This document shows positions 2,785 to 63,030 of a stretch of 64,000 nt of DNA, one piece after another. Made by a program: the position numbers and the translations under genes. Source of the DNA: Promethearchaeota archaeon (GTDB lineage Archaea > Asgardarchaeota > Hermodarchaeia > Hermodarchaeales > Hermodarchaeaceae); assembly GCA_048938385.1 (NCBI GenBank), contig JBHLMG010000001.1:128001-192000 (forward strand), read 5' to 3'. The notes beneath the pieces are model-generated. The model was not told where the DNA came from, made no database searches, and saw nothing but the letters and a program-made list of their open reading frames with translations. Position 1 is the first letter of the stretch, and each line of letters starts with the position of its first letter.

Positions 2785-3284
2785 TTAACCCTTCTCTAAT
2801 TCGCCGAGCGCTGCACGCAGCTCTTCTCGCTCTGCGTCAGTCTTACCTGCCGCTACTGCTGGCTTCTCGGCCATGAATTCATCTAATACTTTCGCAAGCT
2901 CCGCCGCGGCTTTCATCATCGTTAAACGAATCATCCCAATGTTTACTTCCTTATCGGTGATTACGCAGAGTACACCTTTTCCTGCACCAGCAGCGAAAAT
3001 CTTGCCATCACCAAACTCCGAAGTCACGATCGTCAGATCGCCTACATCCAAACTTTTTCCCTGCTCTTCGCTAGCGCAGAACACGGCACTTGCAATCGCG
3101 CCTATCCCGTCTACATTTCCGCGTTGTCTAGGTATTAGAGCAACTCAACGGGGTAGTACGAGAATTTTGAAACATGCGCGATAGTAAGACCGGTTCGGTC
3201 AACGAGGATAGTCTTCTTAATTCCTGGTTCGGATTTAATGACATCGGAGAGGATTTCATCAAATTGTCTCACGGTTATTGACAA
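2785..3284 (-). CDS. Roadblock/LC7 protein, 156 aa, split by a 29-nt BHB intron; join(3146..3284, 2785..3116)
   Basis: N-half (ILVDRTGLTIAHVSKFSYYPV) and C-half (VDGIGAIASAVFCASEEQG) lie in different frames; removing 3117-3145 gives 471 nt and ...YYPVDVDGIGA...; TTG start at 3284 inferred. Confidence 0.85.
3117..3145 (-). other. BHB-type intron in mRNA (roadblock gene)
   Basis: CCGU/GCGG 4-bp helix, bulges UG^A and AA^A, inner stem GUUG(C)UCUA/UAGACAAC, outer CUAC/GUAG. Confidence 0.85.
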
Positions 3285-3411
3285 GGCTAATCCCTTTCCA
3301 CCGAGCTTGCGGGAGTTACCATTTGAGGGGCAGCTTATATCTTTTGTGTGGCAGGAGGTGGATGCCAATTGCGTCGATGATGTTCGAGAGAGAACTGTGA
3401 GAGTTGTCGCA

Positions 3412-3699
3412 TCATCCTCGTAGGACGATGAGGATATAATCTTCTTCAGGCGCAACCATGACTTCTCCCTGTGGAGTTGAGATTGTAAGAAAGTTCATTC
3501 CACCTTCGCCAAGTTCGTCGACTACGCGTTTAGCTTTGCCTACTAGTGATGTAACGAGGGCAGAAATAACCTCAGTTTTCTCTGCGTTTAGGTTGGAGCT
3601 GATTGGTAGGCCTTCCATGTTGGTAATGATAACGCCTCGCACTCCTTCGTGTGCACCGAGGCGTTTGAGTGAGTCTTTCAACGCTTTTCCGCCAATCAT
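3412..3699 (-). CDS. Roadblock/LC7 protein (dynein light chain roadblock-like)
   Basis: [32 protein letters not shown]. Confidence 0.9.
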
Positions 3700-3889
3700 T
3701 GTACTCCACGCTCTCTAGCCACTCACTAGAGGTCCCTCATTGAAGTTATAAAAGTTCCCTCTTGTTCGGGGATAACGAAGACTTTTTGAAAAAATCTATT
3801 GAACGGCGCACAGTTTTTAAACAGGTAGACTAAATCCATGGTAACGCAAAAACTCATGCCATCTTCTTCTGGCGTTGGTTGTGGCTTTT

Positions 3890-4255
3890 ATGCTCGGAAA
3901 AAAAGAGGTCGAAGGGGTACTTGCTGAAGTAATGGACACCATTCCAGAACTCGAAGGTATTATTGCTGCTTCAAATACCGGTAAGGTGGTTGCTGGCCAG
4001 ACTCTTCGAGAAATGAATCATGATGCAATTGTTTCAAGTGTAGTTACCCTTCTAAAGGAATCAAAGGCAGTGAGCCAGTCAGTTGATCAGGGTACAGCTC
4101 AAGTAATCTATCTCGAAACCAACAAAGGCTACACTGTAGCAGTAAACACGGCAAAGGCAATAATCGTTGCAATCGCTGGTAAAGACGCTGCCGCCAGCCT
4201 TGGCCTAATAATCCGGAGCCTTCGAGCCTCAGTAGAGAAAATAACAACTAGTTAG
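3890..4255 (+). CDS. Roadblock/LC7 protein
   Basis: LEGIIAASNTGKVVAG, LGLIIRSLR; size and fold pattern; ATG 3890 preferred over TTG 3875. Confidence 0.75.
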   Translation: MLGKKEVEGVLAEVMDTIPELEGIIAASNTGKVVAGQTLREMNHDAIVSSVVTLLKESKAVSQSVDQGTAQVIYLETNKGYTVAVNTAKAIIVAIAGKDAAASLGLIIRSLRASVEKITTS

Positions 4256-4537
4256 ACTCTTTTTCAAAGGGGTTGTGTCACTCAAAGTCTTAATTGATCT
4301 GACTGTGACCCCTCCAATACGGAAAGTTTACATTTCCTGCTTCATGCCTATGTTTGATATTAACTGATCGACCTACTTTCTGAGGATACGCTTTGAATAG
4401 AGTTGACATCGGAAAGTTCGAAGCATACAAATATGTTGTCTAGGTGGTTATTTGAACTTGAAGAAGATCCTTATCACTTCTAAAGGAAGGGTCTTTTAAG
4501 GTAAATAGATAAAAGCAAGTGAATAGGCGTTGTTTGT

Positions 4538-7500
4538 GTGGCTTTCATTCGGCAAATAACAATTCAAGGGTTCAAAAGCTTTAGTCCCCGAAAAACTACG
4601 ATTAATCTCACCCAAGGGTTTACTGCTATTGTTGGTGAAAACGGCTGCGGGAAAAGCAACATCCTAGATGCGGTTTGCTTTGTTTTGGGTCGACTAAGTA
4701 GTAAATCACTTCGTGCTGAGAATTTTGCTTCATTGTTGTTTAATGGAGGAGCAGGCAATTCTCCAGCCAAGATTTGTCGTGTCAGCTTAGTATTTACTAA
4801 CACGGATCGTCAACTTCCCATTGATGCCGATGAAGTCACCATAAGTCGTGAAGTTGATGAAAGCGGAGTGAGTGCCTATCGAATCGGTGGAAAACGCGTA
4901 ACACGCACTGAAATGTTAGACACTATTTCTGTCGCAGGTTTGCATCCTGAAGGTCACAACATTGTTCTGCAAAACGAATTGGCGAACGTCATCAGCATGT
5001 CACCAACGGACATCCGTCAGGTCGTCGAAGGCGTTGCGGGAATTTCCGTCTTTGACGAAAAGAAACAACAAATTGAAGGTGAATTATCAAAGGTTGATCA
5101 GAACCTCCAAATTGTCCAAATGCGCACAGAGGAAATTAGACAAGAATATTCCCGATTAGAGAAAGACAGGCAGGATGCTCTACGATGGCGTGAAATAACA
5201 GAACAAATAGTCGGTTTTGAACGGGATCTTGTTTTTGCTGAACTCATCCGACTTGAACAAAGACTAAACGAGCTTAAAGAAGAATATGCTACCTATTCAA
5301 AAAACATCAAAGAGTTCGAGGCACAGCGGCAAGCTGCCATGGATCGAAGACTAGAATTAGAAGAGGCTGTTCATAACGACGGCGTTCAAATCAAAACCTT
5401 AGATCAACAGCTGCATAGTAATGAAATTGAAATAACCCGGCTCAGAGAAATACTACGAGGACTCCAACTAACATCTGACAAAATTAATCGTCGAGCAGAG
5501 ACTCTTTCTGCCAGCGTACAACATCTAGAATCTCAGAACATAGAGAAAGAAACAGCCCTTTCTGCGCTAGATGAGAACATAAACGAGTTAAAAGCGGTTG
5601 AAGCCACTCTAAAAGAACAGATTTCTCCCCTTCGTACTCGGTTAACCGAACTCTCTGGACAAATTCCTTCACCTGACGCAGAGTATGTGACCTTGCGTGA
5701 TAGAATTTCATCACTAACCGAGAGGATTGAAACCAAGAAAGGCGAATTGGGTGAGTCTCTTGCTCTACAGCGAATCTCTGATAAAGAGATTACTGAGATA
5801 AAAAAACAAATTGACGAAAGCTACGCGGTGTTACCTGAACAGGAACGCACGCTGCAAGAAGCCAAAACTGAACTCCAAAGCATCGAAAAGGAACTCAAAC
5901 TCATCGAGTCAGAACAGGCAGCACTCCAAGAACAACAAAACAAACTCCAATCTTCTGTGCAAGAAAAACAAAAAACTCAAGATGAACTGACTCTTCTCAT
6001 TCAAGCCGCAAAGGAAGAACTCTTAGAAGCCCAAACACGACTTAAGACTATTCAGGAATTCAAAAAGTACGGTCTTACCCGAAAGGCAGCGATCGAAGCC
6101 GTCCTAAAATTTGCTAAAGAAAATAAAATCCCAGGGGTTTATGGAACTCTTGGAAGCTTAGGACAAACATCAACTAAGCATGCTATTGCCCTTGATGTCG
6201 CAGGCGGTGGACGATTAGACTTCATCGTCGTTGACAATGAAAATACGGCCACGAAATGCATTGACCATCTTAAAAAATCTCGAATAGGGCGGGCTACATT
6301 CATTCCTCTAAACTCGATTAAAGCTGACCCCTTTAGGTACAAAGAGAAGCAAAAAGGAGTCATAGGGAATGCGATGGAATTACTCAACTTCAACGAACAA
6401 TTCCGACCCGCCTTTGAATATGTCTTTGGCAGAACCCTGATCGTTAAGGATTTAGAAACTGCGCGGGAAATTCCAGCTTCGGGTGTTCGAAAAATCACCA
6501 TTGATGGTGATGTTGTAGAGCCTAATCGAACTATAACAGGAGGTTACTACAAAGGCGTTTCTTCCTTAACTCTTGAAGAAGAAGCACGGATTCCTGAATT
6601 ACAGAAGAAACTCAAAGAACTACAAAATTTACAGAAAAAAACAGACCAAGAGTACCGTGAATGGAAGGAGCAATATGAGAATCTAGGTGTACAAATTCGT
6701 GAAAAAGAAACAACAATGGAAAAATTACGAGTTGGTAGAGAGCAAGCCTCTGATGTAGTTACGGAGCAAGAAGAAGCGCTCCAAATCTTCAAAGACAGTA
6801 TTGCTAAACTCCATGCCTCGTTAAAGGGTCAAGACGAAGCGAAGAACCTCTTGGAAAAGAAAATACAATCCATACAAACAGAAATGAATGACCTCACGCA
6901 GCAGCGTGAACGCATACAAAAAGAACTCTCTGACCTTGAACGAAGTAGCCTAGATCCAAACTTAACTAACTTACGATCACAACTGGATGAACTCGAAAAT
7001 CAGTTCCGTGATGTGCAGGTTGAATTAACAGAAAAGAGTGGCGAATCTAAAATTACCACCATCGAATTCAACCGTATATCCAAAGACTTAGAAAACACAA
7101 AGAGCGAATTAGAACAGACACAACAAGAACTTGTCCTTAATCAAAAGGAAATCCAAAGAATTCAATTAGAGCTGGCTTCGCTAGAATCGATCAATAGTGG
7201 TTTAGAAGAAAAAATCCAAAACCTTGAAACTGAAATTTCTTCTAATGAAGCTGAGGCGCAACGCCTCAACACTCAGATTGACGAATTCTTTGATACAATC
7301 AATGAAGAAAAAATGAACCAATCTAGGACAGAAGGCCGTATTGAACACTGGGAAGAACGCATTGCTGCTCAAAAGGAAAAAACCCGCGATTTTGAACCGC
7401 CTCCAATACCGGTTGACCCTGCCATGGTTCATAGCATCCGAAGGCAGTTAGCCGATCTTCAACAAGAACGAGAACAACTTGGGCTGGTGAACCAAAAAGC

Positions 7501-10012: not shown

Positions 10013-10032
10013 CTTCTGCATCTCTAATTGTC

Positions 10033-14765: not shown

Positions 14766-15942
14766 GATTGGCAGCCTCCTTTGAGAGCCGAATTAACAAC
14801 TCAGTAAGCCGTTCACCATTGACGGAGGTGCGAACCGAATGTGCAGAAAAGTGTGTTCGCGAACAGAATTCGCCGGCATTCTGAAGTTCACTTATCACAC
14901 GACGAAAAGGGGGAACTGGAATGTTTGCGCGATCAGCTAGTTGATGAAGATTATAATAAGTGGGAGGGCCGTCAATCTCTTCGCAAATAGTTTTTAACAG
15001 TAATAAAGCGCGACGCGCCGTTCCCAACTCCATATCTTGACTTTGTAGCAATACTTTCTCTATGAAGGCTTTTTCAGCGAACTTGCCAATCCATAGTGGT
15101 CCAATGAATTGACCACTTGTACTCTTACACTCTGGGCAGCAAGGTTGGCTTGGCGCCAAACCCTGAACAATCAAACGATTTTCGCATTCTTCACAGTGAT
15201 AAATAAAACCCATTTGAGAAACGGAGTTCCAAACAGCTTTATCTCCTTCAGAAGACTCACAGAAAACCCGTAAATAGTGGTCAATCGAGAAACCAAGCAA
15301 AGGGCGTAGACTAACACTTTGAGCCGCTGCTTCACGAACCACAGATCCGATTAGTATGCGAAGAGCTAGCTCGTGTGCATATTCAGTTTTTAATGGCACC
15401 GCAGCGTAACGCTTAATGCAGGTTTGGCGACGAATTCCAACTAATGGCGGTAAGTCGGTAGCAGTCAAACACAACAATCCAGGCGTTTTCAACGCACTTA
15501 TTGCTGCAGTGAAAAACTCCCGAGGAGAACCAAAGGGGTCAATGTCAATTATGGTGAACTTGTTCTGAAACGAAAAATACTTGGTGAGGAGTTGATTGGC
15601 TCCACTATGGTGTACCTCTACTAGTTCCGTAACACCATTCAGCTTTCGGTTTTTAGTAATTAATTCCACTGCGTCGGGGTTCGCATCTCCTGCAACTATT
15701 TGCTGAATTCCAGTTACTTCTTTCGCAATTCGAATCGCTCGTACTCCTGTTCCTGCAAGAGGGGTACAGACTCGAACATCTGTGAGGTTCTGTTGATCAA
15801 TGAATGTCTGCAACACGATAACGGTTATGTCTCGATTGAGTTCGGATTTCGGATTGAAAAACACCGGCATATTGGTTGTGGGGACCTTTTGCAATGGAGG
15901 ACGAAGGAAGGACACCTTACCCTCTTGATGCCGTTCGTACAC
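14758..15942 (-). CDS. trm1: tRNA G26 dimethyltransferase
   Basis: PVFFNP..ELNRD, GTGVRAIR, DIDPFGSP, HELALRIL, GPLWIG. Confidence 0.95.
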   Translation of the reverse strand: MYERHQEGKVSFLRPPLQKVPTTNMPVFFNPKSELNRDITVIVLQTFIDQQNLTDVRVCTPLAGTGVRAIRIAKEVTGIQQIVAGDANPDAVELITKNRKLNGVTELVEVHHSGANQLLTKYFSFQNKFTIIDIDPFGSPREFFTAAISALKTPGLLCLTATDLPPLVGIRRQTCIKRYAAVPLKTEYAHELALRILIGSVVREAAAQSVSLRPLLGFSIDHYLRVFCESSEGDKAVWNSVSQMGFIYHCEECENRLIVQGLAPSQPCCPECKSTSGQFIGPLWIGKFAEKAFIEKVLLQSQDMELGTARRALLLLKTICEEIDGPPTYYNLHQLADRANIPVPPFRRVISELQNAGEFCSRTHFSAHSVRTSVNGERLTELLIRLSKEAANHE

Positions 15943-15943
15943 A

Positions 15944-16915
15944 TCAAGCTCCTCGCCGGTTATGTATCAACATGAGCAATTCCTTCGGGTCCTTAATTGA
16001 CAGTAATTCCTCAAGATAGATGACGGGGATACCATCGATAGTTTCAACAGTTGGGGGTTCTGAAGCGATAATCGCTGGTTTTTCATCAAGGACCTTTGCT
16101 AGTCTAGCGAGAAACAGAAGTCGTTCTTCATCAAATTGTTCGAGACGCTGTTTTAGGTAACTCAATAACACATGGCGCTGAAGGGAGGTCAACATATCAA
16201 AGGGTGTTTCCTGAGTGAGAGTTGAAGAAAATCCTAGACGAGAGAATAATTTTACTGCAATTTTGGCTAAATGTGTTGACTTCGTGGGCGTTTTCCGTTC
16301 AATATCTATCGAGTCTACTGTAGCTATAGTTTCTAGCGGGTTGCAGGATCCAATTATTTCCGCATCAAGAAGCTCCTCAAGGCGAAGGGCCACATCAACA
16401 GTGGGATTAATCATTCCCCGTTCATATTCGTATATGGCTCGGCGTGAAAGACCCAATTCATCGGCAATGTCTCCTCGGGAATAATTGCTGGCTTCACGAG
16501 CTTCTCTGAGTTTGTCTCCATTTATGATAACATAAGTTCCGCCCTTTTTTGCTAAAAGTGTAGGAAAGATATTTTCTTCAAACATTCGACGGAGTGTTTC
16601 CAATGTGATGGCGGGAATAGAACCTCGAGTATGAACTACCCCGTCTTGAAGGGGCTGTTTTCGTGTTCGTTCTCCCACAATTAGAGGAGAACACCGTAAA
16701 AACTTACAAACTTTAACGAGTTCCTCTCGCGTATGCACACTAACATTGTCAATGGTTAGACTCACCTTGATAGCAACTCGGGTATCTCCTTCGCCCACGA
16801 CGCTATCAAAGCAGTATTCCTGCTCAAAAGCAGTTGCGTGCTCTCTCGTCGTCGAGTCGACAAACCCACGAACATTTTCTAAATACTTCTGGTGTGAGGA
16901 CACTTTATGTTCCAA
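15944..16915 (-). CDS. Archaeal HTH transcriptional regulator (COG1395-like)
   Basis: PLIVGER...LQDGVVHTR; HTH LGLSRRAIYEYERG; PFD motif. Confidence 0.8.
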   Translation of the reverse strand: MEHKVSSHQKYLENVRGFVDSTTREHATAFEQEYCFDSVVGEGDTRVAIKVSLTIDNVSVHTREELVKVCKFLRCSPLIVGERTRKQPLQDGVVHTRGSIPAITLETLRRMFEENIFPTLLAKKGGTYVIINGDKLREAREASNYSRGDIADELGLSRRAIYEYERGMINPTVDVALRLEELLDAEIIGSCNPLETIATVDSIDIERKTPTKSTHLAKIAVKLFSRLGFSSTLTQETPFDMLTSLQRHVLLSYLKQRLEQFDEERLLFLARLAKVLDEKPAIIASEPPTVETIDGIPVIYLEELLSIKDPKELLMLIHNRRGA

Positions 16916-32382: not shown

Positions 32383-32515
32383 TGGTGGGCCGGCCGCGAT
32401 TTGAACGCGGGATCACCTGTTAAAGGGTTTGTTCGGTTAACAAACCACGCCCCAGGCAGGCATCATACCAATCTAGCCAAAGGCATCTGCCGGGTGGGAT
32501 CTAGACCACCGGCCC
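32383..32515 (-). tRNA. tRNA-Pro(GGG) with two 28-nt BHB introns (D-loop 32471-32498; 39/40 32420-32447)
   Basis: Removing both at the bulge cut sites gives a 77-nt cloverleaf with CCA. Confidence 0.9.
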
Positions 32516-37418: not shown

Positions 37419-38477
37419 TTACTTCCGCTGCAATACTATGATGAAGCGTTTTAGACTTCGATGAATTCGCATCGAGTGCGTTTCCCTAATTCGAAATGCG
37501 TCTGAAGGTATAATTTCTTCTGTGAAATACTTGAAAGGCAACGCCACGCACAGGTACTTATTTGGTTTCAACACATCTGCAAGCGAGGTAAGGCTTGATT
37601 GAACGAGGCTCACAACCTTTGATCCCTTCGTCGAACTAGACCGTCCATAAGGCGGATCCGTTGCAATAGCGTCGACGAATCGATCTCTCAAGGGAGGGGC
37701 TCGGGCATCACCTAGCATTCCGTTAAATGTGAAATGGTAATGCTGCATATTTTGACCACAACCTGTAAGAATAGCTGGATCAATGTCTAGCCCAATAGGA
37801 ACACACCCTATATCTGCGGCTTCTAGCAGCAATCCTCCTGTCCCACAGAAGGGATCAAGAAATCGGCTTCCTGATGTAGCGTGGCTTAAATTTACCATCA
37901 CCCGAGCAATTTTCGGGTTGATTGCACTTGGAACGAAAAAGGGTCGAAGGGGGCTCCGTCGTTGAAATAATCCTACTCGATCGCGAAACGCTAGATGTGG
38001 ACCGAAATAAAAGCGGTCCCCCAAAATCACTCCCATGAAGAGAATGTCCGGGCTAGTGAGGTCAACTTTGACTTTTCCATTCAGAGCTTGCCAAATCGCT
38101 GAACCTATTACACTTTGAAGGGCATCAACATCAATTGGAGTTGATTCGCGTTCTACTCTCGTCACCTTAACACCGAAACGCGCACCGGGATGTAGCCATT
38201 GCGAAAAATCGACATCCTTCAGCGAACGAAGAATCTCCGATTCCTCTGTTGTTGACTCCATCACTACTATGCTAGCTTGGTTTACCAATCCGGCGCGTTC
38301 AACTGCGATTTTCGCTCCTCCTGGATCAACCTTTAGTAGCGCGCAGGGCTGTCTGTGCCACATAAATGTGAACGAAAAACCTTCGGACTCTAAAATTGCA
38401 GAAAGTTCAGCTTGAGGCAGAGTATCATGTTCCCCTGACAATATGAACAAACATGAATAAAGGGCCGTTTGCGTCAA
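37419..38477 (-). CDS. tRNA G10 methyltransferase (THUMP + SAM domain, Trm11/TrmG10)
   Basis: LSGEH, RPFF, DPFCGTGG, TDPPYGRSS, HRSL. Confidence 0.88.
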   Translation of the reverse strand: MTQTALYSCLFILSGEHDTLPQAELSAILESEGFSFTFMWHRQPCALLKVDPGGAKIAVERAGLVNQASIVVMESTTEESEILRSLKDVDFSQWLHPGARFGVKVTRVERESTPIDVDALQSVIGSAIWQALNGKVKVDLTSPDILFMGVILGDRFYFGPHLAFRDRVGLFQRRSPLRPFFVPSAINPKIARVMVNLSHATSGSRFLDPFCGTGGLLLEAADIGCVPIGLDIDPAILTGCGQNMQHYHFTFNGMLGDARAPPLRDRFVDAIATDPPYGRSSSTKGSKVVSLVQSSLTSLADVLKPNKYLCVALPFKYFTEEIIPSDAFRIRETHSMRIHRSLKRFIIVLQRK

Positions 38478-38932
38478 AGGTCCCCCTCCAGGTTCTTCAC
38501 CATAACAAACCCGTCTTCTCCCTCATAGAACCTATTTAGACGGCTTTTCACTTGGAAACCAAAACTTCGATACAACTGTTGAGCTGCTTGATTTGAAACT
38601 CTTACAACTAGAAGCGCTTCCTGACACCCTTTCTCTTCGAACGCTCTGAAAATCCGCATCATTAACTGTCGTCCTATACTTTGCCTTCGATACGGCTGAG
38701 CTACAGCAATTGAGTCTAAATGCCCTATTCGACGATTATTGGCTTCTTGATGAATAGATGCAATAATGTATCCGACAGTAGTTCCATCTTTACTAGCAAT
38801 AAAAAACAAGTCTGGGAAGAACTGAAAATAGATTTGGAAGGCTGCTTCATTCCAAGGAGCAGGAAAGGAATGAGTTTCGATTTGTAAGATCGCCTCTAAA
38901 TCCTCTTCAGTGGCAGCCCTAATGGTAACCAT
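38474..38932 (-). CDS. N-terminal acetyltransferase (Ard1/RimI-like GNAT)
   Basis: HLDSIAV..YRRQSIG, VRVSN..AQQLY, EDGFVM. Confidence 0.88.
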   Translation of the reverse strand: MVTIRAATEEDLEAILQIETHSFPAPWNEAAFQIYFQFFPDLFFIASKDGTTVGYIIASIHQEANNRRIGHLDSIAVAQPYRRQSIGRQLMMRIFRAFEEKGCQEALLVVRVSNQAAQQLYRSFGFQVKSRLNRFYEGEDGFVMVKNLEGDL

Positions 38933-41919: not shown

Positions 41920-42240
41920 CTACTTACCTACAGTGGCAGCTATCCACTCAAGATAGGCTCCGTATCCGTCTTGTATTGGGGCGCTAATAATTTCCGGTAC
42001 TTCGTAACTGTGGAGGGATAATACCCGCTCTCTAAGAGACGCAAATCGATCCTGCTGAGTTTTAATAATCAACAGGCTTTCCTTGTCTTCAATTATTTCT
42101 CCTTTCCATCGGTAGATGGATTTTTGCTGAACCATTCCAACGCAAGCAGCGAGCGCTTCCTCAACTAGTGTTCGTGCAATTAATTTTGCCTCTTTTTCAT
42201 TACCTACTGTTACAAACGCAATGATGAAACCTGAAGGCAT
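41920..42240 (-). CDS. cutA: Divalent cation tolerance protein CutA
   Basis: LAACV, SIYRWKG, LHSYEVPEII, YLEWI. Confidence 0.92.
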   Translation of the reverse strand: MPSGFIIAFVTVGNEKEAKLIARTLVEEALAACVGMVQQKSIYRWKGEIIEDKESLLIIKTQQDRFASLRERVLSLHSYEVPEIISAPIQDGYGAYLEWIAATVGK

Positions 42241-44541: not shown

Positions 44542-44887
44542 GGACGGGAGCCCCGACGGTTGACAACCCTTCCTGACGCCGTGCTCACAGCCAGGTCTCG
44601 GACCCGGATCTCAGAAGCATCTACAGTACAGGCTTACGCTGCTCCCTCCCGGGTCTCGCTGGGTTCACCTGTTTAAGGCGATTCAGCCCTTCCTACGAAA
44701 AGCCTACCGCCACCAGCGATCCTCTGAGGCGGATCGTCACAGCCACGAACAGCGAGTCGTACACCAGGTCAGAAAGCCTAACATCGGCATTCAGCCTGCC
44801 TTATAGAGCATTTGCAGAACAGGGGAGCCTTAGCCAGCCCGTAGCGGTGCTGCGGGGCTTCTAGCCCCCCGCCTAGGCTCACCGTCC
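44542..44887 (-). ncRNA. ffs: SRP (7S) RNA with a candidate 29-nt BHB intron
   Basis: Terminal helix GGACGG.GAGCC/GGCTCCCGTCC; helix 6 GUAG tetraloop; helix 8 GAGACCC-GGGA-GGGAGCAG; Alu-like CUAGGCGGGGGG...CCCCUGU. Confidence 0.88.
44831..44859 (-). other. BHB-type intron in SRP RNA Alu domain
   Basis: GCUA/UGGC helix, bulges GA^A and UA^A, inner stem with ACC loop. Confidence 0.75.
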
Positions 44888-46065: not shown

Positions 46066-46174
46066 TGGTGGGCCGAGGGGGACTCGAACCCCCGACCATC
46101 GCGGTGTAAGCGCGATATCATAGCCTTCTAGTCTGCAAGGATGTATTCCTTCGAGATAACTAGACTATCGGCCC
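46066..46174 (-). tRNA. tRNA-Val(TAC) with 32-nt D-loop BHB intron (46126-46157)
   Basis: CUAG/CUAG helix, UU^A and AA^G bulges; mature 77 nt. Confidence 0.92.
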
Positions 46175-46245
46175 AACTAGTAAATTGTAATTTCGAGCCG
46201 TCCTAAAAAAGTCTCCCTAAAACTAAGTATAAGTCGAAGTATGGC

Positions 46246-51328: not shown

Positions 51329-52652
51329 TTATCCTAGCTCGTCAAATGTGTGAATTCGTAGTTTCACAGGTTTTTTGACGATATTGCCAATGCGTACACC
51401 AATGATTAGTCCGACTCCTCGCTCTTCTGCAATATCGATGAGTCGTTGGGTGACAACGCCATCTAACAGAAGCGTACTAGCCTTCTTTAGATTCTGAAAT
51501 TCGTTGGCAATTTCGCCAACATGCGTTTCTTTTATCGGTTTGAATTTCTCGTCGAGAATTACTGCCGTCATGGTTTGTTGAATTTTTCGGGCTTGCTCTA
51601 AGACTGAGTCAGGGATTCCTAAATCCCGAGGTTTTGGTACCGTGGAGGGCACTTTAGCTCGAGAGCTCCTTGCGGTGCTTCGCTTCGTGTCTCTTGTCGT
51701 GCTTCGGCGTACTGTTTTTACTTTCTGCGTTGTTGTGCGACTACGCCGTTTGGTTTTAACGGCTACCTTTGGTGGAGCACTTTTCCGTTTTATTTTCCCA
51801 AGGACTTCTTCAGCAGAAACTCTATTTCGAAGTGCTTTGGTCACTTCCTTATGAGTAAGCTCTTCAACTTCTCTTCCTGTCGGCGCTCTGGCCACATAAT
51901 CCACTTTTGTAACTTGAGCGAGTTCTTTTAGAATCAGATCTCCACCGCGGTCGCCATCAAGAAAAGCAGTAACAGTTTTACCTTTAGAAAGGTCGACGAT
52001 GAACTTCGGAATTGAGGTTCCTTCAACAGCTATTGCGTTCTTGACGCCAGATCGAAGTAGGGCTAATACATCTGCACGCCCTTCAACGATGATTATCGAA
52101 TCTGAGGATTCAACTTCCGGACCCGCTGGTAGTGCTTCTTTGCCTAGTTTGATGATATCAGCGGTTCGCGATTCTTTCTGAACGGTATCGGTCATTTCCT
52201 GTGAATCAGGTGAAACTTCACCTTCCCAATCGCGTAACAGGTGCACTGCTCGATCGATGATTCGGCGGCGTTTTGCTTCACGGACATCTTCGAGCTTTTC
52301 AAGAGTGATTTTTGCTGCACATGGACCTACACGGTCGACAGTCTCCATAGCAGCAGCGAGTATCGCAGTTTCAGTACGATCAAGGCTACAAGGAATAGTA
52401 ATTGTTCCTTGGGATTTACCGCCTTCAGATTTTAATTCAACTTTTATGCGACCGATGCGTCCCGATTGCTGTAGTTCTCTTAGGTCCAAATCTTCGCCGA
52501 TTGCCCCTTCACATCGGTGATATGAAGTGTAGGCCCTCTGTTTGACCAAAGAGTGCGCCTACAACATCGGGTTTTTCAACAACTCCATCTATTTCGATTT
52601 TTCCACGAATACAATACTTAGTAGTACCAGTGCTTTCTGCATTTGCTCCCAT
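51329..52652 (-). CDS. dnaG: Archaeal DnaG (exosome-associated TOPRIM protein), 431 aa, split by a 28-nt BHB intron; join(52529..52652, 51329..52500)
   Basis: Exon 1 [30 protein letters not shown]; exon 2 [18 protein letters not shown]; spliced length 1296 nt; VEGRADV, DGDRGG. Confidence 0.93.
52501..52528 (-). other. BHB-type intron in mRNA (dnaG)
   Basis: GCCU/GGGC helix, bulges AC^A and AA^U, 9-bp inner stem CUUCAUAUC/GAUGUGAAG with ACC loop. Confidence 0.9.
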
Positions 52653-52800: not shown

Positions 52801-53220
52801 TTAAAACTTTGTGCCTTTCGAAGAATTATCAAATTGTTTGAGTCCTTCAATCACTCGAACATGCCAACAAAAAGCTCGACGTAACTGGTTTCGTTCATCC
52901 TGCAACAGGGTGACTCCTCTGCCCTGTAGTTGGGTGGATAGTTGGCGTGCTAGTTGTTCTCCACGGCGATCAAAATCGAAAAGAATCAATAAGGCTTCAC
53001 ATGAGGCTAGCTCATCAGCTAAACTCACAATACTATGACTCGCTAATAGGTGAATTGGACCTGTTAAGCCAAGTCCCCGAAGCGCTGTGATATCTTTAAC
53101 ACCTTCAACGACGACGGCTATTCCTTGGTTTGAGATTTTGCGCAAAAGGTCAATACCTTTTGTAAACTGGTCTTCTAACTGATCTTGACGAGATTGAGTG
53201 GTTTTTTTGCGCGTCTTCAT
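52801..53220 (-). CDS. Small TOPRIM-domain protein
   Basis: VVVEGVKD..AL, DFDRRGE, IEGL. Confidence 0.85.
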   Translation of the reverse strand: MKTRKKTTQSRQDQLEDQFTKGIDLLRKISNQGIAVVVEGVKDITALRGLGLTGPIHLLASHSIVSLADELASCEALLILFDFDRRGEQLARQLSTQLQGRGVTLLQDERNQLRRAFCWHVRVIEGLKQFDNSSKGTKF

Positions 53221-54460: not shown

Positions 54461-55378
54461 CTAATTCACTTGGACATCGAGAACGAAATGCGTTAACTTG
54501 GGGTTGTAAGTCTTAATTGCACGGGTCTGTAGAAGTTCTACATGCCTGCTCATTGAATGGGCGATATCCTGTAACATTGAAAAAACTTCAAAACCTCTAT
54601 CTTGTTTTGAACTGATCTCATGGATGTGCAAGATACCAGTAGGAGACACACACGAAAGTCCCTGTTTGAGGTAGCGAGTAGTGCCTTGAATCAATCCCAT
54701 TAATACACGGTTCGCTTGTCCTTGCGCAATTTTTGGTGCTAACTGGCTGGTATCACCAAAATGAGGCTTAACAAAATCGGTTACTTTGTTTGCATCAATG
54801 TTCATGCAAAGATAACGATATGCGTCTGGATTCCATTCTATCGCATGAATTATCTTTGGTCGTGCATGAACCGCTATGGGTAAGGCAAATTGCCCTATCC
54901 CTGCAAACATATCCACTACGAATTCCCCTGCTCCAAGTTTACTCATCCGAAGCCGTTCCGCCTTATTTCCAACAGAGAACATGACTTTCATCGGGTCTAG
55001 ATGAAAAACCACCTTATTCTCTCTAAATACCGTATTCGTATTTTCAGAACCAGCAATTAGTTCCAGGGCGGGTCGGCGGTAGGGACCTGATATCGCATCA
55101 GTCCTTTTCAAAACTGATTGAATTCTTGAGTCGTACTTTAACACTGCTTGTCCAATTTGGCTTTGGAAACTGACAATGGAAGGGTGCAACCAGAGAATTG
55201 CGACTGTTCCAAGCCTTCTCAATCGCCGAGGTAGTAACCTCGGGTCAATTTGCTTTTGCAACTCCTCCTGAAGGAACTGATGAAATGGTAAACGTTTAGG
55301 ATTTGTGATAGTCGTCACCTGAACGGAACCAATGGAAGAGAAAGGGTGGGGTCGTGCATGCTCTGCAGATCGATACAC
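54461..55378 (-). CDS. Trm5/TYW2 (Met-10+) family tRNA-modifying SAM-dependent enzyme; start probably downstream
   Basis: KVMFSVGN..ERLR, DMFAGIGQF, EWNPDAY. Confidence 0.85.
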   Translation of the reverse strand: MYRSAEHARPHPFSSIGSVQVTTITNPKRLPFHQFLQEELQKQIDPRLLPRRLRRLGTVAILWLHPSIVSFQSQIGQAVLKYDSRIQSVLKRTDAISGPYRRPALELIAGSENTNTVFRENKVVFHLDPMKVMFSVGNKAERLRMSKLGAGEFVVDMFAGIGQFALPIAVHARPKIIHAIEWNPDAYRYLCMNIDANKVTDFVKPHFGDTSQLAPKIAQGQANRVLMGLIQGTTRYLKQGLSCVSPTGILHIHEISSKQDRGFEVFSMLQDIAHSMSRHVELLQTRAIKTYNPKLTHFVLDVQVN

Positions 55379-55646
55379 TAACGCCCCATCATCATTGGTA
55401 GGCGTAACGCCGTTGTTCCTCCGACAGGTCCTCTCTTAATATGTCGAGCGATGTGAACATTACACGACCCAGCGCTGAAGTGTGGACATCGTGGGTTGCC
55501 CCCACAATCACTTCTTGACGACTCGTCATAGATCAAGCAGGAGCCTGTCACATGCCGCGTAGCCTTCAACGCTGCTCAAGTGTGCCTGTTATTTTGCACG
55601 AATCTTCATAAGACGGGTCTTCAGATTCGTCCTCGATCACAGCCAT
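55378..55646 (-). CDS. Small Cys-rich protein, apparently frameshifted; candidate 29- or 32-nt intron at ~55547-55578
   Basis: ATG 55646 after a TTTTAAG TATA-like box; the frame stops within a hairpin; downstream frame carries four Cys and abuts the next gene. Confidence 0.45.
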
Positions 55647-55699
55647 TATCCTTTCATTGCAAAACTCAAATCAGCAATGGTGGTTCTTAAAACCTTCCA

Positions 55700-57659: not shown

Positions 57660-57736
57660 TGGTGGGCCGGCCGAGATTCGAACTCGGGACCACGAGGTCC
57701 CAAACCTCGCATCATACCGAACTAGACTACCGGCCC
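57660..57736 (-). tRNA. tRNA-Pro(TGG), no intron
   Basis: 77-nt cloverleaf with CCA. Confidence 0.95.
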
Positions 57737-57800
57737 AGACTCTGCTAGTGGTAACAGATGGAGTTGAAAAACCTTTGTCCAATTTAGCTGTTCCGATACG

Positions 57801-58448
57801 CTATGCCGTTCCCACTCCTTCGATCAGGAACCTGATGTAATAGTAGGGCTTTCCGTTCGTATAGTTAACTTTGGGAGGGGATGATACGATGCCAAAATGG
57901 GTCTTCAACAGGTGCACGAGTTCTTTCAGAAAACCTCTGTCCCGCTGCTTCAATTGCACTCGATTCTTCGACACTGAACCATCAGTATGTATTAAACCAC
58001 GCATATAATGCTGGAAGAGCGATGCGTTTTCCGCAATCAACGAGGGAACCCTCAAACGATCTTTCTTCCCAGATTGAAATCCTAGTTGAATAAAAAAGAA
58101 ATACACTGCCGCACAATTGATGTTAATGGCGTAGCAGTTCTTCTTTCGTTTATCTCTTTGAATACGAGGTTGATAGCGAAAGAGCTCTCTAATTAGAACT
58201 GGTAACTGCTCAATGTAGTCTTTGCGCCCCACAACATTTACTCGATAATAGTAACCCCCTCCCTTCCGTTTACACTTGTTTAGGTTACCATCACCCGCAA
58301 CAACGCCAGCGAAGTATGCAACTTTTTCGTTAATTTTTGGAATTTTTATCCGAGTTTTTTTGGTGCAGATAAAGCCATCTTCAATTTTATGCCATACACC
58401 AGCCTCATGCAAAATCTGCGAAATTGCATACACATCAACGCCATTCAT
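57801..58448 (-). CDS. Free-standing two-motif LAGLIDADG endonuclease
   Basis: AYFAGVVAGDG and YMRGLIHTDGS; no intein splicing blocks. Confidence 0.85.
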   Translation of the reverse strand: MNGVDVYAISQILHEAGVWHKIEDGFICTKKTRIKIPKINEKVAYFAGVVAGDGNLNKCKRKGGGYYYRVNVVGRKDYIEQLPVLIRELFRYQPRIQRDKRKKNCYAININCAAVYFFFIQLGFQSGKKDRLRVPSLIAENASLFQHYMRGLIHTDGSVSKNRVQLKQRDRGFLKELVHLLKTHFGIVSSPPKVNYTNGKPYYYIRFLIEGVGTA

Positions 58449-58494
58449 TCTAAAGATGATTCCACTAAGAACTCTAAAAACTCATTAACAGAAT

Positions 58495-58569
58495 TGGAGC
58501 CTCCGCCGGGACTTGAACCCGGGACTGGTGGCTTACAAGGCCACTGCCCTACCGCTAGGCCACGGAGGC
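58495..58569 (-). tRNA. tRNA-Thr(TGT), no intron
   Basis: 75-nt cloverleaf with CCA. Confidence 0.95.
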
Positions 58570-58661
58570 TCGTTTGAGGTTACACAAGCACATCTGATTA
58601 ATGATTCGGAATGAATCGGTGCATCGTGGGTTGCTAACGGGAATTGCACAAAAATGTTTTT

Positions 58662-58711
58662 CTGGCTAGGGTGGCTGCTGGTCGTGGCTTCAAGTCCCGC
58701 CTGAGGCTCCA
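58662..58711 (+). pseudogene. Degenerate partial copy of tRNA-Thr(GGT)
   Basis: TCCCGCCTGAGGCTCCA (58695-58711) is identical to 61379-61395; upstream CTGGCTAG and GGTCG also match; anticodon arm missing. Confidence 0.7.
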
Positions 58712-58796
58712 TTTCACTTGTAGCTGTTCATCGTAAGGACGGGTTGGGGTGGATTTGGGTGTGGTTCAAGGTGGTGGGATCGTACGCTTTCAGGTC

Positions 58797-59285
58797 TCAT
58801 GGGGGTGGGGGTGCAAGTGCACCTTCGTGAATGCACAGGTGGGTGGGGTTCGCGGGGGGTGATTGGAGGGCGTTCCGTAAGAAGGTGGGGTAGAGGGGGC
58901 ATGTTTCGAGTGTGGTAACGGGATACCACTTGAAGATGAGGGTGTGCCCGTTTTCTTCGCCGAGGAATGTGTCCTGTTCGTAAAGCGGTGAGTGTTGGGG
59001 GAATTGGAACAGGTAGTAGAACCCAATCTCATGAGAGGGTGTTAGGAATATCGGGTGGGTTGGGCCGGATCCTTCTTCATGCTGGAAGAAGTTTTCTACA
59101 ACCCAGAGGAGCCGTTCAATCTGGACGGGGGTCTCAGTCTCCTCGAGCATCTCGCGTTTCAAAGCCTGCTCTGTAGTTTCCAGATGTCGTACCCGCCCTC
59201 CAGGGAGCGCCCAGAAGTCCCATCCTTCCACCTGGTGGAGTAACACGCGATGATCCTGAAAAACCACACCGGCGGTGCGTAACAT
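58797..59285 (-). CDS. NUDIX hydrolase
   Basis: WALPGGRV...ETTEQALKREMLEE, ENFF, HEIGFYY. Confidence 0.88.
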   Translation of the reverse strand: MLRTAGVVFQDHRVLLHQVEGWDFWALPGGRVRHLETTEQALKREMLEETETPVQIERLLWVVENFFQHEEGSGPTHPIFLTPSHEIGFYYLFQFPQHSPLYEQDTFLGEENGHTLIFKWYPVTTLETCPLYPTFLRNALQSPPANPTHLCIHEGALAPPPP

Positions 59286-59436
59286 GAACCGCCCCGTTCC
59301 AACTGGAAAGAAAAGCATGGCGTCTAAGAACCGCTGTCATCTCATATTTCTTTTACCATTAACCGGGTATGGGAATAACCCTATGCGTTCAAACTTGGGA
59401 AATTGGCAAGGAAGTTGGTCAAGAAATCGGGAAAAA

Positions 59437-59546
59437 GGTGCGGGGGCCGGGCTTCGAACCCGGGAACTCCTACGAGACAGGATCTTAAGTCCTGCGCCTT
59501 TGACCAAGCTTGGCTTTGAGGTCTCCATTAATGGAGAAACCCCCGC
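59437..59546 (-). tRNA. tRNA-Leu(TAA) with 23-nt BHB intron at position 8/9 (59516-59538)
   Basis: GGGG/CCUC helix, GU^U and AA^A bulges, outer GGC/GCC; spliced 5' end GCGGGGGUAGCCAAG. Confidence 0.88.
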
Positions 59547-59688
59547 CGCTCAGTCATTGCGGGCGCTACCCTTGGACACGCCCCCGCACAGTTGATGGCG
59601 TGACAAAGTTATTTCGGTGCTTAAAATTGCTTCGCGTTGGTGGCGCATACCGAAAATTAGCGCTATATTGGTGTGGTGAGAATAACGC

Positions 59689-61013
59689 ATGAACTACTCC
59701 TGAATAATTCCAGGAGTTCCCATCGAGTCCACTCCCCGAGGAATGTGGGGGAGGGCTGTGTGTCGATGCAAGCCATGCAAGAACGCTTGCAGTGGCTCCC
59801 TGTTCACAGGGGATTGCTGCAATAGGAACCGCACCATGATGTTGACTGCCGCGTTTTTATCTCGATCCAATGTGGTTCCACAATTGCATTGAATAACGCG
59901 CTCGGATAATAACCGATCATTGATTTGACCGCAGACACAACAGGTCTTCGTAGTATACGATTCGTCAATTCTTGCCACTCTCTTCCCTACTTTTTCAGCT
60001 TTGTAGGTCAAGAATTCGGCGAACCTACCTAACGCTCCTGTATTATATACTGAATAATTCAAGGTCCGCGCAGCTTGAGCTCTTAGGGAATTACCCTTCA
60101 GCTGTTGCTTCCGAGCCATGGTTTTGACCTTGAGGGCACCTAAGACAAGTGTATTGGCCTGTGTATTTTCGACAACATTTTTTGACACTTTGTGTTGATA
60201 ATCGCGTAGCTGGTTGGCTAGCTTCTGTTGCATTTTTTGGAGTTTTTTGCGATAGAAGTGCCACCTGTGACTGCCTTTTTTGCAATGGTCGCGCCGGGAT
60301 TGCACCTCCTGGATTTTCTTTCTCCAGTACAGGTCGGGACGACGGTTCTGAATCTGGATAAATTTTCCATGCATGTTGACCGCGGTGACTAAATTCGTAA
60401 TGCCCAGGTCAATGGCTTGGTATAGCATATTATCCACAAATGGAGAAACCTTCGCAGAACGCACAATTGCCACAAACCACCTATGACGCGCATCCTGAAA
60501 GATTTCTACTTGCTTAACCTCTCCTTCAAGTCGTGACAGCCAAGGCAAATTAAAAAGTAGTGCCACTCCCGAAGGATGCTTGTGAGAAAATTGTATAGTC
60601 TTTCTCTCGGTATCGATGCTAAATCCTGATTGATTGTAGCACAGTGTCGTGAAGAAATTCTTACCTTTGAACCTGGGCGGTCGTGCTTGCTTGTCACCTG
60701 TTTTCCATCGGGCAAAGAAAGACTTGTAGTCAGCATCCAACTTCCGAAGTGTCATTTGGAGAACCTTCGAATAGACCCAGAAATATTCAGGAAATTGGCG
60801 TTTGAGGGCAGGTAGGTTGTTCTGTTGTGTTGTGTAGGTGATATAGTTTCGCTCTGTCTCCGGTTTCGTGCGATTTGATTCCCAGTTTTGACGGCGTTCG
60901 TTCAGGGCGAAGTTGTAGAGGAGCCGACATTTCTCAGACAAGATCCATAATATCTGCTCTTGTTTTGGTGTGGGTTTTATGCAAATTTTATGTGTCAGCA
61001 TCTTGTGGCTCAT
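59689..61013 (-). mobile_element. tnpB: IS200/IS605-family (IS1341-like) element encoding TnpB only; CDS 59694..~61001-61013; left end not defined
   Basis: LYNFAL, PPRFK, RuvC-I AIDLG, zinc finger CCVCG...CNCG, DRDKNAAVNI; 3' hairpin ACTCCTG..CAGGAGT followed by TTCAT end. Confidence 0.88.
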
Positions 61014-61152
61014 GCTACAGATATGGTGCGCGTTCGGATTTTTCAGTCTAGAGGGAGGGGGACTGATAACTATCTGGTCAATTCTTCCCGGGAATGCTAA
61101 AACAGAGATTTTCTGCAAAATAGTTAAAAGGTACGAGCTGGGGTTAAGTGCT

Positions 61153-61304
61153 GCCGAGGTAGCTTAGCCTGGTTGAGCGCCAGACTCATAGGGCACTGCC
61201 CCAGGGTCAAGATTTGATGATTGCTGGCGCACCGGAGACATCTGGAGGTCGCGGGTTCGAACCGATGTCCTCGGGACTTCGCGGAACGCCCGCCCTCGGC
61301 ACCA
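61153..61304 (+). tRNA. tRNA-Met(CAT), elongator-type, introns at 37/38 (61191-61239) and 59/60 (61262-61287)
   Basis: BHB at both sites; mature 77 nt with CCA. Confidence 0.9.
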
Positions 61305-61317
61305 ATTGAAGAGTTGA

Positions 61318-61395
61318 GCCTCAGTGGCATAGCCTGGCTAGCGCACCGCCTTGGTAAGGCGGGGGTCGCGGGTTCGAATCCCGCCTGAGGCTCCA
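61318..61395 (+). tRNA. tRNA-Thr(GGT), no intron
   Basis: Cloverleaf with CCA. Confidence 0.95.
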
Positions 61396-61489
61396 CAATT
61401 TTTGTGTTTTCAAGGGAAGATGTGAGATTTTTAAAGAGAAAGCGAATGAATCCCTATGCTGGCAACTGTAATGCGAGGTGAATTTCGCC

Positions 61490-62176
61490 ATGACGGTGGA
61501 TGAAGAAAAACGCTTAGCGGCAGAAGCTGCGATCAATCATGTGTCTGATGGGATGTGTTTAGGTGTTGGTACAGGTTCGACGGTGGAAGTGTTCATTGAG
61601 TTACTAGTTGAGAAAATTGCGGCAGAAAACATCACCATCACAGCAGTTCCCACCTCGTGTGCCACTCAACTACGGTTACATGATGTTGGAATCACCACCA
61701 TTCCTTTGGGGTGCGTCACGAGTTTACCTTGCGCTGTGGATGGTGCTGACGAAGTAGATTCCACCATGGCCCTCATTAAAGGGGGAGGAGCTGCGCTTCT
61801 TCGAGAAAAAATCTTAGCTGAAGCAGCTCAGCAATTGGTCATCATTGTTGACAGTGGTAAATTAGTTAAACGATTAGGGGCTCGAACACCCATTCCGGTA
61901 GAGGTTCTTCCTGAAGCTCTCGCACTGACCATGGATCGAATTCAACAACTCGGTGGTTCACCCATGCTACGACAAGCCAAACGAAAAGCAGGTCCTATCA
62001 TCACCGATAACGGAAATTTCATCCTAGATGTAACATTTCCCAAAATCACCAATATCGCAGCCTTAGATACAAAACTCAACGCGATTCCTGGAGTTATTGA
62101 AAACGGGCTTTTTCCAGATCAAGCTGATGTTGTGTATGTTGGTCAAAAGAAGACTGTGAAAATCTTACAACGATAA
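61490..62176 (+). CDS. rpiA: Ribose-5-phosphate isomerase A
   Basis: GVGTGST, DGADEVD, IKGGGAALLREK, TDNGN. Confidence 0.96.
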   Translation: MTVDEEKRLAAEAAINHVSDGMCLGVGTGSTVEVFIELLVEKIAAENITITAVPTSCATQLRLHDVGITTIPLGCVTSLPCAVDGADEVDSTMALIKGGGAALLREKILAEAAQQLVIIVDSGKLVKRLGARTPIPVEVLPEALALTMDRIQQLGGSPMLRQAKRKAGPIITDNGNFILDVTFPKITNIAALDTKLNAIPGVIENGLFPDQADVVYVGQKKTVKILQR

Positions 62177-62223
62177 AACACAACATCCATAAAGTACTAG
62201 CTCTTCTTCGCTAGCCAATACGA

Positions 62224-62346
62224 GGGCCCGTGGCCAAGTCGGATAGGATGAAAATCTCCGCAGAAGGCGCCGGCCTCCTAAGCCGGTAATCCCGGGTTCG
62301 AAAGCGTCCATCCTGATTGGCGTCGAGATTCCCGGCGGGCCCGCCA
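62224..62346 (+). tRNA. tRNA-Arg(CCT), introns in D-loop (62245-62263) and at 59/60 (62303-62329)
   Basis: BHB-like at both sites; mature 77 nt with CCA. Confidence 0.9.
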
Positions 62347-62367
62347 TTTTCTTAATGATGTTGAGTT

Positions 62368-62964
62368 TCAGCTTCCGGCTACAATATCTGCAGGCGCGAC
62401 TAGATAGTAGGTGGGTTCACCTTGACGGTCTAACACTGCAAGCATCAATTTCTTGCGATTGCGTTTTGCCTGTTTGGTGAAAACATCAAGTTCTGTTACT
62501 TTGAGAGGAGAACCTTCCGAAATAGTACAGACGAAATACTTAGCTGTTGCTTCATTAAGTTTGGCACCACGAGGATAAACCCGAAATAACAACCCTTTCC
62601 CATACCCAGTACGGACAACATAGCCCCTACTCCGTAAATCGCTGTACACAAGAAAGCGTGTCCATAGCCCCAATTGCTTCTCTGCGAGTCGTTCAAGGAG
62701 AACCGAAAATTCCAGCGTGTTCTTCTTTAAATCCTTCACCGAGATACGTTGCCGTCTCAGTAGCAATAATGCCTCTTCGGGTTCAAGGATAAGCGTTTGC
62801 GAGTCTTTCAAAGTTCCGTAATACCCGGCTTCAAACAATAGTTTCGCATGTTGCCCTGTGATTACCACGCGACCACGGGTTAGCTTTGCTTGAATGGGTT
62901 CATCGGGGAGTTGAGATCGTTCATCGCTGGGCGTATCATCCTCAATGGTTTTTTCCTTGGTCAT
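62368..62964 (-). CDS. endA: tRNA splicing endonuclease subunit, probably the structural (beta) type
   Basis: GYYG, EEALLLL, FLVYSDLRSRGYVV, FRVYPRG, RKKLMLAVLD; no His at the expected catalytic position. Confidence 0.85.
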   Translation of the reverse strand: MTKEKTIEDDTPSDERSQLPDEPIQAKLTRGRVVITGQHAKLLFEAGYYGTLKDSQTLILEPEEALLLLRRQRISVKDLKKNTLEFSVLLERLAEKQLGLWTRFLVYSDLRSRGYVVRTGYGKGLLFRVYPRGAKLNEATAKYFVCTISEGSPLKVTELDVFTKQAKRNRKKLMLAVLDRQGEPTYYLVAPADIVAGS

Positions 62965-63030
62965 CCTTGAACACCATCTCAAGCGAAAAGAGGCGAAGCT
63001 ATATAACCTCTTCCCGTCACCCCCAATTTA

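Follow-up and report, generated by a model that had tools for sequence, protein, structure and literature searches.

Within a 64,000-nucleotide window of genomic DNA from a Promethearchaeota archaeon, we identified three short inserts, of 28 nucleotides (nt) in dnaG, 29 nt in a roadblock gene and about 31 nt in the signal recognition particle (SRP) RNA gene, that are very probably introns cut out by EndA, the splicing endonuclease, at relaxed bulge-helix-bulge (BHB) motifs of the HBh' type. The window, by which we mean the whole stretch analyzed, corresponds to positions 128001-192000 of contig C23 in genome G000 (forward strand), a metagenome-assembled genome (MAG) of 2.48 Mb in 51 contigs that is 90% complete. 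Among named relatives, its DnaG is closest to that of "Candidatus Hermodarchaeum/Hermodarchaeota" MAGs (81-89% identity), and a roadblock and Arf-like GTPase cluster is encoded in the window; together these confirm, as judged from sequence kinship, the Asgard origin that a first-pass annotation of the window had called putative. That annotation had also placed four BHB elements outside tRNA genes. Overall its proposal is partly supported, with three of the four elements confirmed, the mechanism and the lineage supported, and the extent overstated.

The BHB topology was searched as outer helix, 4-nt exon strand, 3-nt bulge, intron hairpin, 4-nt intron strand, 3-nt bulge and outer helix, and in a relaxed form with the same topology and an optional outer helix, for which a mirror-image decoy served as the control. 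In each 3-nt bulge, the cut was placed between the second and third nucleotides. In all three inserts, a central helix of 4 bp is combined with bulges of 3 nt and an inner hairpin. Excision by the cut rule, which the first-pass annotation had already invoked for EndA, yields the uninterrupted orthologue sequence to the nucleotide in dnaG, in the roadblock gene and in the SRP RNA.

In dnaG, the two exons lie in different frames across the insert. Excision gives GQTEGLLGEDLDL, the same product in all family genomes, and the spliced gene reads GQTEG-LL-GEDLDL, exactly the sequence of intron-less orthologues. We extracted the dnaG junction from 30 related genomes. The insert is found at one site in 18 of 18 family genomes with a length of 28, 29 or 31 nt: all 14 other genomes of the same genus have a 28-nt insert at the identical site, and the three genomes of the sister genus have inserts of 29, 31 and 29 nt. 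The frame offset between the exons tracks the insert length, and the frame is recovered only when exactly the insert is removed. In eight other Asgard families the insert is absent; six nucleotides (LL) occupy the junction and the gene is open in a single frame (GQTEG-LL-GE..). The 18 sequences comprise 15 distinct introns in which the 3-nt loop is hypervariable and changes in the stem are compensatory (for example C to U with G to A in L014). Synonymous codon differences outnumber non-synonymous ones in exon 1 (1303:220) and in the first 120 codons of exon 2 (7860:2493), with no stops in either, indicating that both exons are under purifying selection. A metagenome contig spans the insert with zero mismatch. 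Only one full-length dnaG was found in the genome, the second Toprim match being a short open reading frame (ORF) of 139 amino acids. Inserts were also observed at a second dnaG site 11 nt upstream (after GGCC AA, within the Gln codon of GQTEG), with lengths of 32, 34 and 40 nt in G020, G024 and G026, which represent three further families. These follow the cut rule and restore GQ(T/L)EGLL, the 34-nt case having been parsed by hand.

The roadblock gene (2785-3455, minus strand) is split after ..FSYYPV. All 26 orthologues examined are uninterrupted here (YYPV-DV-DGIG, with GAT or GAC at the insertion point), including 13 from the same genus at 96-100% amino-acid identity, and the 29 extra nucleotides occur in the source genome only. 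Removal of the insert by the cut rule leaves GTT GAT GTA GAC, identical to the orthologue codons, and we found no lesion in the gene besides the insert. The chance that a given insert would form the motif in the right register is about 1e-3 (269,038 matches in ~2.3e8 position-length pairs). The roadblock insert looks like a very recent intron gain. The BHB elements that had been proposed from the window's letters for dnaG and the roadblock gene are thereby confirmed at the predicted lengths, with the orthologue sequence or codons restored upon excision.

Both protein genes are frameshifted when read conventionally, and the roadblock insert comes from a single MAG. This would fit decay of the two genes into pseudogenes, or inserts that arose as insertion or assembly artefacts, with no functional protein made. 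For dnaG, however, the insert is common to independent MAGs representing 18 species and several studies, the exons are intact and selected, no other full-length copy was found, the frame is restored at each of the three insert lengths, and the metagenome contig reproduces the insert. The roadblock insert is nucleotide-precise in an otherwise undamaged gene and obeys the cut rule, which it would seldom do by chance. We regard this explanation as very improbable.

A second alternative leaves the inserts in the mRNA and has the ribosome skip them, through translational bypassing or programmed frameshifting. Bypass elements such as T4 gene 60 and the mitochondrial byp elements are typically short inserts, 27-55 nt long, that form a hairpin and have a stop close by, a description that the present inserts resemble, and crenarchaeal cbf5 introns were formerly mistaken for frameshift sites (PMC2738675). 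However, neither the roadblock nor the dnaG junction has a matching pair of take-off and landing codons (in dnaG, CUA precedes the gap and no CUA precedes the resume point), the insert boundaries fall at the points predicted for the endonuclease and not at codon boundaries, and frameshifting cannot delete 9-10 codons. Moreover, the same geometry and cut rule hold in the untranslated SRP RNA and tRNAs. Ribosomal skipping is therefore, in our estimation, even less credible than gene decay. For dnaG, removal at the RNA level would explain the pattern described above, which neither a pseudogene nor assembly error nor ribosomal frameshifting can explain.

The third insert lies in the SRP RNA, where the Rfam alignment places 33 extra nucleotides in the helix-3 loop. 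The insert predicted in this loop by the first-pass annotation is present; the 29-nt register given for it (44831-44859) is one of three that fold, and the best is 31 nt, so that the common length of 28-29 nt proposed for the three elements holds for dnaG and the roadblock gene and their common geometry for all three. Only the 31-nt register gives GGGGGGCUAG joined to GGCUCCCC, which is the hairpin found in relatives that lack the insert (for example GGGGAGCUAGGGCUUCCC). The insert is found in both genera of the family and is lacking in nine other families. An unrelated insert of 30 nt occupies the same loop in G029, where it forms a strict hBHBh' motif (outer helix 8 bp, inner helix 7 bp) and leaves an identical product upon excision. 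In the family's own insert, U-to-C changes at the final position of the central helix's 3' strand convert a G-U pair to G-C. From these comparisons the SRP RNA insert is probably an intron.

Several observations weigh against reading the three inserts as introns. The fold alone carries no weight: the relaxed motif has ~7000 matches in the window, and genome-wide the real matches (269,038) do not exceed those of the mirror decoy (269,766). Matches fusing two long open frames number 1020 against 1038 for the decoy. A small excess was seen among the most stable ORF-bridging folds (22 vs 10 at -14 kcal/mol or below) and among folds whose 3' bulge starts with AA (11 vs 5 at -10 kcal/mol or below); we found no bulk enrichment over the decoy genome-wide, whether overall, among ORF-bridging matches or with the 3'-bulge AA filter. 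The BHB motif by itself is no evidence for introns, and the case rests on comparison with other genomes. Since the relaxed motif is as common as its decoy, mRNA introns are not countable genome-wide from the fold. The outer exon-exon helix of the strict motif is missing from the two mRNA inserts and from the SRP insert of the family (0-1 bp), which makes these motifs relaxed (HBh'-type) and their recognition dependent on a broad-specificity enzyme. The roadblock insert is the weakest of the three cases, given its basis in a single MAG. For the SRP insert, the three sliding registers (27, 29 and 31 nt) fold equally well, its sequence is near-invariant across two genera, and an RNA-library contig from a ~96%-identical relative runs unspliced through it into the 3' exon (44695-44876). 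Finally, a search with an 8.9-kb stretch returned no RNA run of the source organism, and no spliced junctions were detected in two RNA libraries of relatives that contain small shares of a 1.7-kb stretch, in which only unspliced SRP RNA and tRNA-Val were seen.

The observations on SRP RNA would also fit a lineage-specific extension of helix 3 that is kept in the mature RNA as an expansion hairpin. The near-invariance of the insert, unlike the variable dnaG and cbf5 introns, its ambiguous register and its linkage to the 3' part of the transcript all favor such an extension, and extra hairpins of ~14-20 nt occur just after helix 3 in the SRP RNAs of G027 and G024 (L070, L071) and are absent from other relatives. 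Set against this are the 31-nt register, which gives exactly the hairpin of intron-less relatives, the unrelated G029 insert with its strict motif and identical product, and the change from G-U to G-C in the central helix. The unspliced SRP contig does not discriminate between the two, because the library may reflect DNA or precursors: it also contains an unspliced tRNA-Val gene, with a bona fide intron and foreign flanks (46066-46175). A retained extension is unlikely on balance, though it deserves far more weight than the alternatives considered for the mRNA inserts, and we favor an intron in SRP RNA. Splicing itself was not observed for any of these transcripts; their cleavage and ligation are what we infer.

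The genome encodes two EndA paralogues. The alpha subunit is located on C23 near 325 kb, ~133 kb downstream of the window on the same contig. It shows a full-length match to the catalytic subunit of the heterotetrameric Aeropyrum pernix enzyme (3P1Z_B, 6e-46), keeps the Y/H/K motifs, and aligns gaplessly to the A. pernix protein over the stretch read as the crenarchaeal specific loop (L1), which is linked to broad specificity. The beta-like structural subunit is encoded in the window (Table 1). The genes for RtcB and archease are neighbors, located about 13 kb beyond the end of the window. The host is thus predicted to encode both an EndA able to cut relaxed motifs and an RNA ligase. Asgard (alpha-beta)2 EndA with an L1 loop, and relaxed-motif cleavage by such enzymes, have been published (PMC5829648).

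We propose that, once the RNA is transcribed, the last four exon nucleotides before the 5' cut would pair with the last four intron nucleotides before the 3' cut. Heterotetrameric EndA, assembled from the alpha subunit encoded elsewhere on C23 and the beta subunit encoded in the window, would then cleave between the second and third nucleotides of each bulge, and RtcB with archease would join the exons and probably circularize the intron. Full-length DnaG and roadblock protein would be translatable only after splicing, and SRP helix 3 would regain its normal size.

To gauge how far such introns extend, five mRNA introns were checked in the 2.48-Mb source genome: those in dnaG and the roadblock gene and others in cbf5, an EF-2 paralogue and a CoA-transferase gene. 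The cbf5 intron is 41 nt long and lies in motif I, and its excision restores NLD/KPPGPTSH, matching orthologues that lack the intron (here and below, a slash marks the junction). Inserts of 40, 41, 42 or 43 nt are present in the 11 other same-genus genomes for which the junction was recovered, whereas the sister genus and 10 genomes from other families (again, those with a recovered junction) have no insert at the site. The stem covaries (AGCTTG/CAAGC, AGTTTG/CAAAC and AGCCTG/CAGGC, the slash here separating the two strands). For the 31-nt intron of the EF-2 paralogue the product was judged by an open frame and the conserved RG/ITI motif only, and for the 35-nt intron of the CoA-transferase gene by an open frame only. 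A blastn-short search with six introns and their flanks found no related intron copies in the genome, and there is therefore no sign of a mobile family.

Additional cbf5 inserts were observed outside the genus. Two other families have BHB introns, of 29 nt and 41 nt, inside the catalytic Asp codon (GTL/D/P), in L223 (G024:C1, ~835.85-835.96 kb) and L225 (G029:C1, ~383.76-383.90 kb), at the position of the crenarchaeal cbf5 intron (PMC2738675). This site, common to G024, G029 and Crenarchaeota, could be ancient or convergent. In two members of the source genus, L226 and L227 (G011:C9 and G006:C30), cbf5 is one 836-amino-acid open frame with the halves of the protein ~1.6 kb apart, which suggests an intein-like in-frame insertion besides the mini-intron.

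Taken together, these comparisons indicate that mRNA introns of the BHB type are real and recurrent in Asgard archaea. With five introns checked and no bulk excess over the decoy, the expectation of many mRNA introns genome-wide was not borne out, and a general non-spliceosomal mRNA splicing system, as the first-pass annotation had put it, is an overstatement. Introns of this kind affect a handful of genes (roughly 0.3%) and are not a general mRNA property; the decoy-controlled scan leaves room for perhaps ten more. Other ORF-bridging matches in the window (for example 15896-15947, 38457-38512 and 41924-41948) join adjacent, separately complete genes. Matches from a scan with the mirror topology (opposite-strand form), the top one at 52902-52927 (plus strand) in a small Toprim ORF, were rejected as chance-level, with shuffles equal or better.

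The fourth proposed element, a weaker candidate in a Cys-rich gene (55547-55578), was not upheld. We rejected the gene itself (55378-55646, minus strand), as the sequences of 17 relatives contain in-frame stops and differ in length by numbers of nucleotides not divisible by three; the region is a conserved structured non-coding RNA rather than a protein gene. RNAalifold identified 69 pairs, 16 of which have compensatory changes. The RNA is about 300 nt long (55378-55690, minus strand), lies between cytidylyltransferase-like and Trm5/TYW2-like genes and is present in 17 of 18 other family genomes. It has no Rfam match, and part of it is covered by RNA-library contigs of relatives. RNase P RNA was ruled out as its identity, since that gene lies on contig C18 (G000:C18:5252-5631; L195:1501-1880). 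The RNase P RNA itself is 380 nt long vs a 288-position model; an insert of 25 nt separates the P2 3' strand from the ACAGAA region, and other parts of the RNA have larger ones.

The window also contains seven interrupted tRNA genes with ~10 inserts of 17-56 nt, recovered by motif excision followed by an ARAGORN re-run and by hand parsing; this count matches the 10 introns in 7 tRNA genes listed previously. The inserts are distributed as two each in tRNA-Pro(GGG), tRNA-Met(CAU) and tRNA-Arg(CCU) and one each in tRNA-Val(UAC), tRNA-Leu(UAA), tRNA-Tyr(GUA) and tRNA-Asp(GUC), with non-canonical sites frequent among them (after nucleotide 7/8, in the D-arm and in the T-loop). Unaided, ARAGORN and Rfam found four uninterrupted and three interrupted tRNAs and missed four of the seven intron-bearing genes. 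Heavily interrupted tRNA genes have been published for Asgard archaea (PMC11291895; bioRxiv 10.64898/2026.10.13.758758), and the inserts in the window agree with them.

Small strain indels (best DNA run, co-occurring variants) were seen at 61268-61273, 62308-62314 and 63799-63802, and also at 59431 and 55615. They fall inside the predicted Met T-loop, Arg T-arm and Asp introns and the variable loop of the structured non-coding RNA, as expected of unconstrained intron loops. Two other genes stand beside tRNA genes in the window: an IS605 OrfB/TnpB-type transposase (59694-61118, minus strand) adjoins tRNA-Leu, and a free-standing LAGLIDADG endonuclease-like ORF (57801-58448, minus strand) is located between the tRNA-Pro/5S rRNA pair and tRNA-Thr.

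Table 1. Coordinates of predicted introns, their host genes and the EndA structural subunit in the window
Feature	Position	Strand	Description	Identified by
Roadblock/MAPKK1_Int-like gene, exon 2	2785..3116	-	stop included	
Roadblock gene, mRNA intron	3117..3145	-	29 nt; central helix CCGU/GCGG, bulges UGA + AAA, inner hairpin GUUG..CAAC	
Roadblock gene, exon 1	3146..3455	-	start codon not fixed; ends ...YYPV + G	
tRNA-Pro(GGG), intron at 37/38	32420..32447	-	28 nt	ARAGORN re-run after excision
tRNA-Pro(GGG), second insert, D-arm	around 32469-32504	-	register ambiguous	
SRP (7S) RNA gene	44545..44884	-		Rfam RF01857, 117.7 bits
SRP RNA, insert	44830..44860	-	best register 31 nt; central helix GGCU/GGCU, bulges AGA + AAG, 5-bp inner stem	
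tRNA-Val(UAC), D-loop intron	46126..46157	-	30-32 nt, register ambiguous	ARAGORN re-run after excision
dnaG, exon 2	51329..52500	-	Toprim domain; stop included	
dnaG, mRNA intron	52501..52528	-	28 nt; central helix GCCU/GGGC, bulges ACA + AAU, 9-bp inner hairpin, 3-nt loop	
dnaG, exon 1	52529..52652	-	ATG at 52652; ends ...GAG GGC CUA C	
tRNA-Leu(UAA), intron after nucleotide 7/8	59516..59538	-	23 nt	ARAGORN re-run after excision
tRNA-Met(CAU), insert at 37/38	61191..61239	+	49 nt; may be composite	hand parsing
tRNA-Met(CAU), T-loop intron	61262..61287	+	26 nt	hand parsing
tRNA-Arg(CCU), D-arm intron	62246..62262	+	17 nt	hand parsing
tRNA-Arg(CCU), T-arm intron	62303..62329	+	27 nt; strain indels within	hand parsing
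EndA structural (beta-like) subunit	62368..62982	-	catalytic His not conserved	
tRNA-Tyr(GUA), intron at 37/38	63601..63656	+	56 nt	hand parsing
tRNA-Asp(GUC), canonical intron	63787..63816	+	30 nt; strict hBHBh' (outer helix 7 bp, inner 9 bp)	ARAGORN re-run after excision

The cbf5 pre-mRNA intron of Crenarchaeota was reportedly described by Watanabe (2002) and Yoshinari (2006). It is found in Desulfurococcales and Sulfolobales (Yokobori 2009; PMC2738675), and in the literature searched cbf5 is the only confirmed case of an archaeal mRNA intron (PMC2738675; PMC5829648; PMC12397907). It resembles the introns described here in often breaking the frame, in its cleavage by a hetero-oligomeric EndA and in having been gained and lost among lineages. 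The present hosts differ: they include dnaG, a roadblock gene, an EF-2 paralogue and a CoA-transferase gene, they belong to the Asgard phylum, and several genes are interrupted per genome as opposed to one. In addition, the cbf5 intron of the source genome lies in motif I (NLD/KPP) and not in the catalytic Asp codon.

In geometry, cut rule and similar sizes the inserts resemble the relaxed-BHB (HBh', hBH) tRNA introns of Thermoproteales and Asgard archaea, with which they also share the (alpha-beta)2 type of EndA with an L1 loop and repeated lineage-specific gains (PMC5829648; PMC11291895; bioRxiv 10.64898/2026.10.13.758758). The hosts here, in contrast, are mRNAs and SRP RNA, with no tRNA body and no outer exon helix. 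The Asgard interrupted-tRNA papers (PMC11291895; bioRxiv 10.64898/2026.10.13.758758) make no mention of mRNA or SRP RNA introns.

Two further systems offer partial parallels. In Thermoproteus a permuted SRP RNA is processed at BHB motifs, and rRNA precursors and rRNA introns likewise undergo BHB processing. The rRNA processing is cited in PMC5829648. As here, EndA and a ligase would act on a structural RNA other than tRNA; the Hermodarchaeota insert, however, is a simple internal insert in the helix-3 loop, with neither circular permutation nor a processing stem. The other parallel is the unconventional splicing of HAC1/XBP1 mRNA in eukaryotes, which relies on Ire1 with RtcB or Trl1 and is stress-regulated. 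There too, a protein and not the spliceosome excises a small mRNA intron that changes the frame, and RtcB-type ligation follows, but that system uses another nuclease and another recognition motif, and nothing here suggests regulation. The role of RtcB in HAC1/XBP1-type splicing is cited in the references of PMC5829648.

Several targets were hit more than once, with two sites in dnaG, two sites in cbf5 and two inserts in one SRP loop, so that the same short gene segment has been struck in different families. The gains fall into three dated tiers, species-specific in the roadblock gene, genus-specific in cbf5 and family-specific in dnaG and SRP RNA, and these provide material on how BHB introns arise, a question left open by the recent tRNA-only census. 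We tentatively suggest, as a reading slightly less likely to be right than wrong, that Asgard BHB micro-introns actively spread into any transcript with four exon nucleotides able to pair with the insert, striking the same genes independently. Their targets would be housekeeping and eukaryote-signature mRNAs, SRP RNA and perhaps RNase P RNA, and the gains would be recent and species-specific, as in the roadblock gene. The results do not show a general splicing system, and the process has no mechanistic link to the spliceosome. If spreading of this kind is true, protein-catalysed mRNA splicing would have been routine in the archaeal relatives of eukaryotes, and Asgard annotations would systematically miscall genes as frameshifted. 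In MAGs of Hermodarchaeota and other Asgard archaea, genes such as dnaG, cbf5 and the EF-2 paralogue will appear broken to gene callers, which distorts inferences of completeness and metabolism. Overall, while cbf5 alone has been shown to carry such an intron in archaea for more than 20 years, these results indicate that several unrelated genes in one Asgard lineage, and very likely its SRP RNA, need tRNA-type splicing.

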